A DNA stretch of 64,000 bases from an uncultured cyanobacterium (GCA_963803805.1 CAWDOD010000002.1:960001-1024000); one strand, 5' to 3'; positions 3,995 through 49,384 are shown, counted from the first letter of the stretch. Notes: generated from the letters alone by a model not told the origin. Program-made: numbers and translations.

Positions 3995-4069
3995 AAAAGA
4001 AAAGGCTTCTGGGAGTCTGGCCGTGTTTCGACCCCAAAAGCCTTTTCTTTAATTTTTGCTCCTCACACA
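3995..4069 (-). ncRNA. yfr2: Yfr2-family sRNA
   Basis: Minus strand starts TGTGTGAGGAG (complement of the Yfr1 CTCCTCACAC motif), then hairpin AAAGAAAAGGCTTTTGGGGTC-GAAACACGGCCA-GACTCCCAGAAGCCTTTTCTTT with the Yfr2-type GAAACACGG loop. Confidence 0.8.
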
Positions 4070-4182
4070 ATCATAACTTATACTTTTCTTGCCTATTTAT
4101 CTAGGGGAGTAGTGACACTTTTCAAACTGACACTCACCTCTAATTGATAGTTGATAATTACCTCTCCTTGTCTCCCCCTGTT

Positions 4183-17673: not shown

Positions 17674-18489
17674 CTAACTTTTCTCTATTGTGTAATTGCT
17701 ACCTTGATGGGAACGAAAGAGATGGGAATGTTGGGGATGATAAAGCTGCGATCGCACTTTTTGATCAGCTTTTAAGGCAGGACTAATTATATAAAGAGTA
17801 GTACGAATTAAATCTTGTTCTTGAGTAATTTTAGCCATTTCTTCAAGAGTAACCATCAAGACTTTTTCATCAGGCCAACCTATGCGAAAACAGATAGCCA
17901 CTGGGGTATCAGGGGGATAATGCTGAAGTAACTTTTCCTGGGCCGCTTCTACATGACGGGCAGCGAGGTAAAGGCAAAGACTCCCTTGGTGGGCAGCTAA
18001 AGAGGCTAAATCCTCCGACTCTGGTACAGCAGAAGCACGACCGCTAATACGGGTTAAGATAATTGTTTGTACCAAGCCCGGTACTGTCAGTTCCGTTTGT
18101 AGTGTGGCTGCTGCGGCTTGAAAGGCACTGATTCCTGGTACTAATTCAAAAGGGATTCCTGCTTCTTTTAAAGCGTTCATTTGCTCATGAATAGCGCTGT
18201 ACAAACTCAAATCTCCAGAGTGTAAACGTACCACAATGCGATTAGCTTTTACCCTTTCAATCATCAAAGGTAAAATTTCTTCTAAGGTTTTGTTACCAGT
18301 ACGTACTAACTCCGCATCGGGGGGTACATCTTGCCAAATTTGTTGAGGAACTAAAGAATCAGCAACTAAGATTGTATCTGCTTGTTGCAAAATTTTTAGG
18401 GCTTTAACTGTTAGTAAATCTGGATCACCAGGTCCAGCACCAATGATATAAACGGCTGGGGTTAAGGAAGAATAAGAAGATGAAGACAT
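17674..18489 (-). CDS. cobM: Precorrin-4 C11-methyltransferase
   Basis: IGAGPGDPDLLTVK, VVRLHSGDLSLYSAIHEQM, ELTVPGLVQTIILTR. Confidence 0.93.
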   Translation of the reverse strand: MSSSSYSSLTPAVYIIGAGPGDPDLLTVKALKILQQADTILVADSLVPQQIWQDVPPDAELVRTGNKTLEEILPLMIERVKANRIVVRLHSGDLSLYSAIHEQMNALKEAGIPFELVPGISAFQAAAATLQTELTVPGLVQTIILTRISGRASAVPESEDLASLAAHQGSLCLYLAARHVEAAQEKLLQHYPPDTPVAICFRIGWPDEKVLMVTLEEMAKITQEQDLIRTTLYIISPALKADQKVRSQLYHPQHSHLFRSHQGSNYTIEKS

Positions 18490-18589
18490 GAATATAAGTT
18501 AAAAGTTAAAAGTTGTTGGTGGAAGGCGATTTTATCTAGTTTGGTAAACTCTTCCGGATCTGAACCCAAAAGCGAAGTAATAAAGAAGT

Positions 18590-18640
18590 GGTAGATGCAC
18601 CCTGGTTAAGCTCTGGAGTTTTCACTTCAGAGCTTTTTTT
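18590..18640 (+). ncRNA. NsiR1-like sRNA, copy 1
   Basis: TCCGGA 18553-18558 (-35 position), GTAATA -10, GGTAGATGCACC 5' end, terminator AAGCTCTGGAG/CTTCAGAGCTT + T run. Confidence 0.6.
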
Positions 18641-18738
18641 GTTACTAATTATTCCTCTAATTTCCTAAAGTTAAATAAGAAAAAGAAATATCTGATTACT
18701 TTCCGGATCTGAACCCAAAAGCGAAGTAATAAAGAAGT

Positions 18739-18790
18739 GGTAGATGCACCCTGGTTAAGCTCTGGAGTTTTCACTCCCAGAGCTTTTTTT
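18739..18790 (+). ncRNA. NsiR1-like sRNA, copy 2
   Basis: TCCGGA 18702-18707, same 5' end, terminator hairpin + T7. Confidence 0.6.
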
Positions 18791-18888
18791 GTTGCTAATT
18801 ATTCCTCTAATTTCCTAAAGTTAAATAAGAAAAAGAAATATCTGATTACTTTCCGGATCTGAACCCAAAAGCGAAGTAATAAAGAAGT

Positions 18889-18939
18889 GGTAGATGCACC
18901 CTGGTTAAGCTCTGGAGCGAAAACTCCAGAGCTTTTTTT
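18889..18939 (+). ncRNA. NsiR1-like sRNA, copy 3
   Basis: TCCGGA 18852-18857, same 5' end, perfect hairpin AAGCTCTGGAG-CGAAAA-CTCCAGAGCTT + T run. Confidence 0.6.
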
Positions 18940-18973
18940 GGTTTTGGGAATTATTTAAAATTGAGCGATCGCC

Positions 18974-19786
18974 CTAACTCATAGTTGATTTTTTCCGAGT
19001 AGAAATCACATTGGGAAGAGGACGCTTAAAGCCATAGAGCCAAATTAGCCCAGCTACACCGAGGGTAATAGCAATTAAACTAATAACCTGAGCAATGCGT
19101 AAAGGCCCTAACATCAAACTATCTAACCGCAGTGCCTCAATCCAGATACGACCGCTACTATAAGCTATTAAGTAAACTAAAGCTAGGGTTCCTATTTTCA
19201 AAACTTGAGGATGCCTCAAGCCCCAGAAGAAAAGATACATCAGCAGAGAAAAAACAGCGATATTCCAAACCGACTCATAAAGGAAAGTGGGATGAAAGTA
19301 GCCCTCTGCTTGGGGAATATAAAGTTTCCAAGGTAAGTCTGTGGGACTACCATAGGCTTCTGAGTTAAAGAAGTTACCCCAACGCCCAATTGCTTGCCCT
19401 AAAGCCAGGGAAGGAACAGCCAAGTCTGCTAGTTGCCAAACCGAGACTTTATTGATACGGGCGAAAATCAACCCGGCAATAGTGCCTCCCAAAATCGCGC
19501 CATGAATAGCAATACCACCATGCCAAATAGCGAAAATTTCCGTAGGGTTCTGGGCATACTGGGGCCATTGAAATAATACATAATAAAGTCTGGCACAGGG
19601 AATTGCCCCAATAACCAGCCAAATTGCCAAATCAGCCAGCAAATCAGGATTAACTTGGCGGCGTTTAGCTAGATACTGAGAAAGGGCTACCCCAATTAAG
19701 ACAGCACTAGCTATTAGTACACCGTACCAGCGAACAGTAACAGGTCCGATGGTAAAAATTTCTGGCCCAGGAGAAGTAAATTGCAT
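18974..19786 (-). CDS. lgt: Prolipoprotein diacylglyceryl transferase
   Basis: [38 protein letters not shown]. Confidence 0.95.
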
Positions 19787-47755: not shown

Positions 47756-49384
47756 CTAAGAACTTTTAACCACAAATTCCAAAGCTTGCCCATAAGTACT
47801 ACCAAACTTAATCTGTACCCCAGAATTCAAAGCTACTTCTTGATGATGAATTCTTTGCCAACCTTGGGGTGTAGACAAAAAAGTTCCATAGCGGGAAAAA
47901 TCCCTGAGAAAATAATTCTTTTCCAAATCTTGCCCAGCAAAAATTTCTCGACAGATGATTTGGGCATGATTTTGGGAAACCCATTTTTCTTGAATTACTA
48001 AATCATTTTCCCGACGACGACCTACTCGCATCAATCCACCACGAATATTCCAAACTTTACTAGTATTATCTACAGCACGAATTGAGGCGACTAGTTTGGG
48101 TTGGGAAGATGACTTACTAGAGGCAGGCATCACAGGAAGTTCGGTAATACCTTCGTCCACAGCTTTAATCAGCTTGCCATCAAACTCCGGGTGCATATAG
48201 AGAATGGGTAAAGTCCAGGCAGGTTGATTAAACTTATAAAGAGTCAATAGCTGCTGTCTCGCCACTGCTACTGCTTGATCAATAGCCATTCTTTCACAGA
48301 GGGCTTCTGTGAGGACCTGTATAAAACTCAGGGCTTCGTCATCGGCAATAGGATCTCTCATACCTAAAACAGCCGGAACACCATGGTGAATCAATACCTC
48401 TGCTAAGCTACTACGCTTGATGGCTAATTTACCAATACGATCTGGTTGAGCGCCCCAACAAGCATTGAAAACGGCTAAAGTGACCTTATTCCTTACCAAT
48501 ACTTGGGCCAATTCTGTGCCGTTAATGGTGGCATCAGAGCGGAGAAAAAGTAGTCCCCCATCTGGGGCAGGAACACAATGTCCTGCATAAATTAAAACAT
48601 TATATTTTTCTGTTTCCAAGGCTTCAATTAAAGTAGCTGGGGTGGGCTGAATCAAAGAATCAACACAAGCAGGTACAGGATAAACAAATTTGTTTGAATC
48701 CGGCTGAAATTGATTTTCTTGTTCAATCACCTTAGCTAAGGTTGCTGCTTCTTGCTCTAGTTTGAGGGGATTAAATTGCTCATATTTTTGTTCGTCATGA
48801 CCTAAGACTAAAAGGATATTCAACACTTCTTGGGCTGGATATCGCCTCAGAGGATCAACATCATTGGTAGTACGACTAAACAAAAGCTGCTGGTTTAAAG
48901 AAATTGCTTGCTTACCTGCTTCTGGTTGCATAATTTCCCAAGGTAAGGAAATTAAATTAGGATCACGCAATTCTAGACGCAGACGAAGGGGCTTGTTTTG
49001 GCCAATGGCAATACCTTGGCTTTGAGCTAAGCTATTGCGTATTAGACCTTGAAACAGCCACTGCCACAAATTAATACCAAAGTCTTGCATTAATCGGCCG
49101 CCATACCCCTGGGAAGAATCTCCATTAGAAATATATAACTCCGGAGGGGCTGGCAGTGTAGAATTTTGGTCTAGCGGGTAAGGCAAATAGAGGTCTTCTT
49201 CAATAGAGAACATTTCTTGCCAAGCTAGCCATTTTTGGCTCAACTCTTGTGACCAAATACAGTCATGGTGAACATAACCCCCTGGAAAAGGAGCTTTGAG
49301 AACCCAAATAGCAAAGTTTTCTGACCCAGCCTGAGTCAGGCGAGCGATCGCTAGACTGAGGCTGGGAGTAAAGCCTGAAGACAT
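47756..49384 (-). CDS. CHAT-domain protein with C-terminal FHA domain
   Basis: LPWE, YAGHC, FNACWG (His/Cys dyad); FHA VGR...VSQNHA...DFSRYGT. Confidence 0.88.
   Translation of the reverse strand: MSSGFTPSLSLAIARLTQAGSENFAIWVLKAPFPGGYVHHDCIWSQELSQKWLAWQEMFSIEEDLYLPYPLDQNSTLPAPPELYISNGDSSQGYGGRLMQDFGINLWQWLFQGLIRNSLAQSQGIAIGQNKPLRLRLELRDPNLISLPWEIMQPEAGKQAISLNQQLLFSRTTNDVDPLRRYPAQEVLNILLVLGHDEQKYEQFNPLKLEQEAATLAKVIEQENQFQPDSNKFVYPVPACVDSLIQPTPATLIEALETEKYNVLIYAGHCVPAPDGGLLFLRSDATINGTELAQVLVRNKVTLAVFNACWGAQPDRIGKLAIKRSSLAEVLIHHGVPAVLGMRDPIADDEALSFIQVLTEALCERMAIDQAVAVARQQLLTLYKFNQPAWTLPILYMHPEFDGKLIKAVDEGITELPVMPASSKSSSQPKLVASIRAVDNTSKVWNIRGGLMRVGRRRENDLVIQEKWVSQNHAQIICREIFAGQDLEKNYFLRDFSRYGTFLSTPQGWQRIHHQEVALNSGVQIKFGSTYGQALEFVVKSS

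Follow-up and report, generated by a model that had tools for sequence, protein, structure and literature searches.

Three tandem units resembling the promoter, small RNA gene and terminator of the heterocyst RNA NsiR1 lie between lgt and cobM in a 64,000-nucleotide stretch of DNA from an uncultured cyanobacterium (hereafter the window). According to a 2015 review, NsiR1 has been verified in cyanobacteria that form heterocysts and fix N2, and its place is upstream of hetF (PMC6596454). The locus raises the question of whether these units are genuine NsiR1 genes and, if so, what they might do away from hetF in a genome that looks non-heterocystous.

The repeat array and its RNA family

The units form a single array detected by Tandem Repeats Finder with a period of 150, 2.6 copies and 96% matches (Table 1). 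Each is ordered TCCGGA, 18 nt, GTAATA, 7 nt, GGTAGATGCACCCTGGTT, hairpin and T run, and the GGTAGATGCACCCTGGTT segments (GGTAG) start at 18590, 18739 and 18889, spacings of 149 and 150. A preliminary description made from the sequence alone had given this layout and spacing, placed TCCGGA at -37..-32 of the GGTAG start, which is true in all three units, and noticed that the hairpin loop and 3′ arm vary while their pairing is kept. The computed folds agree with the latter point (energies in Table 1): the three copies have the same promoter and 5′ part, variation is confined to the terminator loop and 3′ arm, and the copies share a two-helix fold (z-scores of -3.2, -2.1 and -3.2, 200 shuffles). 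The RNAs would be 52-53 nt long. The start of copy 1 falls within 18589-18591, and the Nostoc start maps to the G of GTAGATG (Table S3 sequence, PMC4734099). Three terminator-like sites are found on the + strand between 18300 and 19100 against 0.7 expected, two of them being the hairpins of copies 1 and 3.

Table 1. Coordinates of the array, its flanking genes and a second class of NsiR1-like genes of the host (window positions unless a contig is named).
Feature	Position	Strand	Evidence and remarks
cobM/cbiF (precorrin-4 C11-methyltransferase)	17674..18489	-	TIGR01465, 331.9 bits (cut-off 259.65)
Whole array: three promoter-sRNA-terminator units, period 149/150 bp	18552..18940	+	Tandem Repeats Finder, sequence
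Putative promoter, copy 1	18553..18589	+	TCCGGA (-35, DIF1 type) 18553-18558, N17, aGTA, N9, T; predicted function
NsiR1 copy 1, ~50 nt	18589..18641	+	RF02399, 44.4 bits, model positions 1-60; fold -17.9 kcal/mol
Putative promoter, copy 2 (identical to copy 1 promoter)	18702..18738	+	TCCGGA 18702-18707
NsiR1 copy 2	18738..18791	+	RF02399, 44.6 bits; fold -17.0 kcal/mol
Putative promoter, copy 3	18852..18888	+	TCCGGA 18852-18857
NsiR1 copy 3 (distinct terminator loop CGAAAA)	18888..18940	+	RF02399, 47.1 bits; fold -19.8 kcal/mol; terminator scan
lgt (prolipoprotein diacylglyceryl transferase)	18974..19786	-	TIGR00544, 248.5 bits
Second-class NsiR1-like genes	C2:160790-160847, C3:60391-60444, C10:381857-381914		(U)AGUAGAUGCACCCUGAUG and GGAGAG-type terminator

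The window was searched against Rfam 15 at gathering thresholds. The three units match the NsiR1 model (RF02399) over its full length (1-60 of 60) and above its gathering score of 39, while the covariance-model search of 14 control genomes gave no NsiR1 match above the cut-off. The 5′ end of the array RNAs is an exact match to the start of the Rfam consensus (UGGUAGAUGCACCCUG) and the Nostoc PCC 7120 entry starts GTAGATGCACCC (Table S3, PMC4734099), so that the NsiR1 5′ end given in the preliminary description was correct. The array consists of new members of the known NsiR1 family, as had been proposed. Chance is excluded because the Rfam scores exceed the cut-off and the same unit is conserved at the same locus in dozens of genomes (see below). 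The window also contains, on the - strand, a Cyano-1 RNA (3996-4072; RF01701, 51.9 bits vs cut-off 41) and, from the Rfam search, a tRNA (1119-1192).

The published DIF motif of heterocyst-specific promoters is a TCCGGA near -35, with the nsiR1 promoter as type example (PMC4030482); the box of the array, earlier called DIF1-type, corresponds to the motif as defined there. The sequence TCCGGA at -35 is recognized by σHetZ, with the consensus TCCGGA-N16-17-TGNA-N7-9-T, and candidate promoters were assigned with at most two mismatches in the methods of that work (PMC13342950). The array promoter TCCGGA-N17-AGTA-N9-T18589 falls within this limit with one mismatch in the -10 part. Its -35 box and spacing fit the σHetZ (DIF1) regulon of Anabaena PCC 7120, in whose accessible description NsiR1 is not named (PMC13342950), and the array promoters are predicted to depend on HetZ.

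The best-known relative of the array is NsiR1 of Nostoc/Anabaena sp. PCC 7120 (RF02399), present in 12 tandem copies upstream of hetF as compared with three copies beside cobM and lgt here. The two share the family, the 5′ sequence, the size class, the terminator, one DIF1 promoter per copy and the tandem layout, and both are transcribed away from a neighbouring protein gene whose leader RNA could overlap them. They differ in sub-type, the array having CCCUGGUU and a GCUCUAGAG-like stem where the Rfam consensus and the copy in the accessible Table S3 (PMC4734099) read CCCUGAU. They also differ in context: the Nostoc array is near and divergent from hetF and its host forms heterocysts and fixes N2, whereas the neighbours here are cobM and lgt and the host lacks nif and HetP-family genes. 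NsiR1 of Nostoc is described as an RNA whose HetR/HetZ-dependent expression is limited to differentiating cells.

The search of the host genome yielded ten NsiR1 matches, eight of them above the cut-off. Four further copies are of the DIF1 type: a pair at C2:932868/932982, one at C2:13490 and one at C10:556577 (box TCCTGA). Next to the genes at C2:932868-933034 and at C2:13490-13542, in divergent orientation, there is in each case a small pentapeptide-repeat gene whose HetL/Alr5209-like matches are below cut-offs. Three matches carry another promoter without a DIF1 box (second class in Table 1); no other Rfam family matches the NsiR1-like paralogues lacking DIF1, and such an origin was rejected. 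Second-class genes are also present in Microcystis ichthyoblabe and in a Spirulina MAG. A GGGG-N5-CCCC palindrome, which fits the published HetR site requirement GGGnnnnnCCC (PMC4192349), lies ~25-40 nt upstream of two of the three host copies and of the Spirulina copy; the Microcystis ichthyoblabe copy lacks this site and that genome lacks a HetZ gene.

Regulators of the host and distribution of NsiR1

The host genome (5.31 Mb in 11 contigs, 97.4% complete) was searched for the genes of heterocyst development and nitrogen fixation. Profile searches of the contigs did not find nifH (best match 216.9 bits vs cut-off 394) or nifD (55.6 bits vs 654). HetP-family genes are absent from the host genome and from two other members of its family, the same model detecting 4, 2 and 1 genes in the control genomes G008, G044 and Lyngbya aestuarii. 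The GTDB family of the host comprises three sampled species, none with nifH, and the host CobM is closest to non-Nostocales records, with at most 76% identity among 53 named loci. This gene content (no nifH, nifD or HetP family) supports the earlier impression of a non-heterocystous genome, morphology itself being unreadable from sequence.

The look-up of hetR, hetF and patX suggested at the outset gave a mixed picture. The gene hetR is present and intact (C9:176069-176968; PF18460, 145.5 bits). Just upstream, at C9:177447 (-), a patX-like ORF of 76 aa ends in ERGSGRFDTGPFQG and has a TCCGGA box 46 nt before its AUG; it is the sole short ORF with RG[ST]GR found in the host genome by a crude screen. 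A HetZ-related gene is intact (NF037964, 621.9 bits vs cut-off 612) and HetZ proper is recognized (NF037963, 552.4 bits vs 550). The latter was located with published sigma-4 residues used as a motif and confirmed with NCBIfam; HetR-box-like palindromes did not lead to hetZ in the host genome. Relative to the congener G001, host hetZ proper (C11:~305900-307061) has a 1-nt deletion that puts its first ~50 codons in another frame, either a real break or an assembly error. A comparable N-terminal loss is found in hetZ of G032. The best hetF homologue (C4:206952-209332; CHAT protease type) is interrupted by a change of frame that leaves two ORFs, of 204 and 598 aa, the break lying outside any long homopolymer. 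Contig C4 carries no NsiR1 match, in agreement with the earlier remark that no hetF is near the array. The window itself encodes a CHAT-domain paralogue of the hetF-like protein (48158-49081 (-), C2:1008158-1009081; 34% identity over 314 residues).

Judged from its genes, the host has the HetR/PatX/HetZ core without nitrogenase, since hetR, patX-like and HetZ genes were found and nifH and nifD were not. The frame breaks in hetZ and hetF indicate that part of the circuit may be decaying or that the assembly may hold errors. The array could accordingly be read as a relic whose sequence is kept while its driving circuit is broken, in line with the frame-shifted hetZ proper, the split hetF homologue and the lack of nif and HetP-family genes. 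This is improbable: the three copies have identical promoters and 5′ parts and intact terminators, the array is expanded relative to the congener, the HetZ-related paralogue, hetR and the patX-like gene are intact, and both frame breaks may be assembly errors.

Two additional sequence elements were observed. The 17-bp HetR site of the Anabaena hetP promoter (GAGGGGTCTAACCCCTC) recurs without any change at C2:1363124, ~40 nt before a 213-aa ORF without NCBIfam or Pfam match, in this genome lacking HetP-family genes. The palindromic repeat TTATTGGGGGACTAGCCCCCCAAAC and close variants occupy at least eight intergenic sites of the host genome (e.g., C2:224892, 225198 and 225504; C4:204210 and 412185; C6:85931; C11:410616), the three on C2 being 306 bp apart. 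The element looks like a small dispersed repeat.

The distribution of NsiR1 was investigated in the host and 60 relatives of the same order, representing 38 families with at most two genomes each. NsiR1 scores above the cut-off in 34 of the 61 genomes, and a HetZ-family gene (E <= 1e-30) is found in exactly the same 34. HetR_C is present in 32 genomes, 31 of them shared with the NsiR1 set; G031 has a weak HetR without NsiR1 above the cut-off, while G011, G034 and G039 have NsiR1 without HetR_C. The nifH gene occurs in 27 of the 61 genomes and in 14 of the 34 NsiR1 holders. Ten named genomes show the same partition (NsiR1 in 5/5 with the HetZ family vs 0/5 without): Lyngbya aestuarii BL J, Capilliphycus salinus, Limnoraphis robusta, a Spirulina MAG and a Chamaesiphon MAG have both, while Crocosphaera watsonii WH 8501, Microcystis ichthyoblabe and the Prochloraceae, Snowella and Halothece MAGs have neither above the cut-off. 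In the pooled set NsiR1 is found in 39/39 genomes with a HetZ-family gene vs 0/32 without, figures that describe a pattern and not a statistic because relatives are not independent. As a pattern across genomes, NsiR1 appears to track the HetZ sigma factor and not heterocysts or nitrogen fixation. Such a distribution fits the initial suggestion of an ancestral or repurposed system.

Occurrence of NsiR1 outside heterocystous strains is on record. A BLASTn comparison of 89 genomes in Table S3 of PMC4734099 gives 38 homologues, of which 27 are heterocystous. This leaves 11 non-heterocystous genomes, among them, judged by column position, Trichodesmium IMS101, Arthrospira PCC 8005 and Oscillatoria PCC 7112, 6506 and 6304. 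In that table the NsiR1 5′ motif appears in one row only, that of the hetF copy. RNA162 of Limnospira indica PCC 8005 (57 nt) is an NsiR1-like RNA of a filamentous non-heterocystous host (PMC8400943). The accessible parts of PMC8400943 and of Table S3 (PMC4734099) do not state where these RNAs are encoded, from which promoter or in how many copies, and do not connect them with lgt-cobM or HetZ.

The spacer between lgt and cobM

Both flanking genes are encoded on the - strand, lgt upstream of cobM, and the array on the + strand, so that the sRNAs are antisense within the lgt-cobM spacer as first described. The array is divergent from cobM, with 101 nt between the cobM start codon and the beginning of copy 1, and convergent with lgt. 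A simple consensus scan of the - strand detected neither a σ70-like promoter nor a terminator in the spacer, which is weak evidence for promoter absence. The distance from the NsiR1 start to the cobM AUG is only 72-81 nt in some genomes. A salt-marsh metatranscriptome with 6% of the sampled words contains one 151-nt contig over 18890-19040 (depth 2, 6 differences, no strand or start information) and a second one only at the edge, 19364-19400.

The preliminary description had proposed to look at lgt-cobM spacers of relatives. NsiR1 is directly upstream of and divergent from cobM in 18 of the 32 NsiR1-bearing relatives with a cobM match. The remaining 14 have no copy within ~1.5 kb of cobM, so the linkage is not obligatory. 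Among 53 named cobM loci, 11 have one to four NsiR1 copies that share this position and orientation (four Lyngbya, two Limnoraphis, Capilliphycus, a Spirulina MAG and three other MAGs); the unicellular records carry none. In 15 of the 18 relatives, and at 10 of the 11 named loci, the far side is occupied by lgt on the strand of cobM. The gap between lgt and cobM is only ~8-139 nt at seven named loci that lack NsiR1 (Halothece, Dactylococcopsis, Snowella, Prochloraceae and three MAGs), and on account of these close pairs lgt-cobM resembles an old operon within which the sRNA gene was placed. The sRNA gene is present in the spacer of 15 of the 16 HetZ-bearing relatives that keep lgt beside cobM, the exception being G039. 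Position and opposite orientation are retained in at least 11 families.

The most uniform case is a single large family (f7), probably heterocystous. A 16-nt signature of the cobM-type copy occurs once per genome in 41/41 genomes of 40 genera, its reversed control never, and in 40/40 genomes with a cobM match it lies beside cobM as a divergent single copy. Since every sampled f7 genome with a cobM match has the lgt-cobM copy, the non-hetF context of NsiR1 is not peculiar to the host. One member, G008, also has a long NsiR1 array next to a divergent hetF-like gene (842 aa, CHAT domain), together with nifH and four HetP-family genes, a gene content as expected of a Nostoc-type organism. In G044, an nifH-negative member, a long array with 9 copies above the cut-off (C38:205321-206478) is not divergent from a hetF-like gene and is flanked by an LptD_N-domain ORF and a subtilase-DUF5942 gene.

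Sequence conservation at the cobM locus was assessed in an alignment of 22 copies beside cobM, taken from 20 genomes. Positions 1-15 do not vary, except for positions 1-2 in two copies. Pairing in the terminator helix amounts to 96%, and three of its nine pairs show compensatory changes; neither the covariation score nor the percentage of pairing was reached in any of 500 shuffles, and sliding the partner by 1-3 columns gave at most 67% pairing. TCCGGA is exact at -34..-36 in 20 of the 26 cobM-linked copies of relatives, four having one mismatch and two being masked by N. At other best-match NsiR1 loci it is exact in 47 of 67, with one mismatch in 18.

Most genomes have one copy at the cobM locus, e.g., the congener G001; G002 has two, G005 four (three above the cut-off) and in G041 five were found. 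The single copy in G001 and in most genomes implies that the triplication in the window is a recent, local and lineage-specific expansion. That the true locus is single-copy, as in this member of the same genus, and was multiplied by the assembly is conceivable for tandem repeats, which are prone to mis-assembly, and very improbable here: the copies differ in loop and 3′ arm with pairing kept, the array is inside a 1.45-Mb contig, and arrays of 2-6 copies exist at the cobM locus in other genomes.

Candidate modes of action and their meaning

We consider it probable that the array represents three independently transcribed genes for NsiR1, a regulatory RNA of ~50-60 nt, with HetZ-type promoters, each producing a pairing RNA, which arose by recent triplication of a probably ancient gene of the lgt-cobM spacer found in heterocystous and non-heterocystous HetZ-bearing cyanobacteria. 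Each unit comprises a HetZ-type promoter, a 17-nt 5′ segment (UGGUAGAUGCACCCUGG) that is constant from genome to genome, a short linker and an intrinsic terminator. In the mechanism that we propose, HetR would switch on the HetZ-family sigma factor, the sigma factor would fire the three promoters, and NsiR1 would base-pair through its 5′ segment. Its action would probably be exerted in cis on an lgt-cobM read-through transcript or a long cobM leader, to which the RNA is perfectly complementary, and in trans, by way of the 5′ segment, on further targets of the host.

In Nostoc, hetF translation is blocked by NsiR1.1, an antisense RNA to the leader of that gene, and the hetP-like gene alr3234 is repressed in trans by NsiR1.4, according to the accessible parts of PMC9045159 and PMC8406250. 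The proposed cis action on cobM would parallel that of NsiR1.1 on the hetF leader. A duplex scan gave no complementarity beyond background between the array RNA and the start regions of hetF, hetR, hetZ and lgt; the duplex with the hetF start region has -11.5 kcal/mol vs a genome median of -12.4. With no HetP family and no hetF complementarity above background in the host, neither of the known Nostoc targets can be carried over to it. Perfect complementarity exists only to the DNA upstream of cobM and of one pentapeptide-repeat gene. Trans targets were sought by pairing the 22 nt at the 5′ end of the RNA with 4191 roughly defined start regions of the host genome only. One of the two top matches was discarded as a target, being the antisense of a paralogue. 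The best candidate in this single genome is the leader of a cyclase-TIR-AAA_35 gene (-30.9 kcal/mol). An 18-bp near-perfect complement to the NsiR1 5′ end is found there at C2:503421-503442, ~80-100 nt before C2:503520-505619, which encodes an adenylate/guanylate cyclase-TIR-AAA_35 protein. It may be a trans target, or else the remnant of an NsiR1 copy that decayed on the opposite strand.

A cis effect on the lgt-cobM or cobM message is a tentative reading of these data. The missing - strand promoter and terminator and the short NsiR1-cobM gap are suggestive only, and a lower need for cobalamin in a non-dividing cell type, which would give the effect a rationale, is speculation. The main rival to the cis effect is that NsiR1 acts in trans only, its lgt-cobM position being a frozen accident with no effect on either gene. 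This is quite possible: descent alone can preserve synteny and orientation, alr3234 is a trans target of NsiR1.4 in Nostoc (PMC9045159, accessible text), the conserved 5′ segment is what a trans seed would resemble, the cobM-linked copy is missing from the 14 NsiR1-bearing relatives mentioned above, and the host has four further DIF1-type copies elsewhere, two loci being divergent from pentapeptide-repeat genes. Conversely, the same position and opposite orientation are kept throughout the f7 genomes with a cobM match and across the families noted above, the spacer gene is nearly constant among HetZ-bearing relatives that keep lgt beside cobM, and no conserved trans target could be named, the best candidate coming from one genome.

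A wider version of the cis proposal would make the spacer copy the original NsiR1 of all HetZ-bearing cyanobacteria, older than the heterocyst and functioning as a cis-antisense switch that uncouples or lowers cobM, and with it cobalamin synthesis, in any cell where σHetZ is active. We regard this as doubtful. No paper of the searchable literature contains both NsiR1 and cobM, NsiR1 does not occur in the 8 papers listed of 666 found on precorrin, cobalamin and lgt, and within this literature the lgt-cobM home of NsiR1 is apparently undescribed. With sizes of 171 and 122 nt (PMC4734099), NsiR8 and NsiR9 were dismissed as possible identities of the RNA beside cobM. The added value is moderate and lies in the conserved lgt-cobM locus, apparently new, and in the strict link to HetZ; the RNA family and its occurrence outside heterocystous strains were already known.

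With the family known and its non-heterocystous presence on record, the gain for this window itself is modest. The wider interest is that an RNA cast by reviews as a heterocyst RNA beside hetF has a fixed home between lgt and cobM in many families. This locus offers a concrete candidate target, cobM and the lgt-cobM message, and the array promoter may serve as a marker for the role of the HetR-HetZ circuit in filaments that never make heterocysts. If the spacer copy were indeed the original cis-acting switch, non-heterocystous filaments would also have HetR/HetZ-defined cell states with a metabolism of their own, and the model Nostoc strains would carry an overlooked single-copy NsiR1 paralogue in that role.
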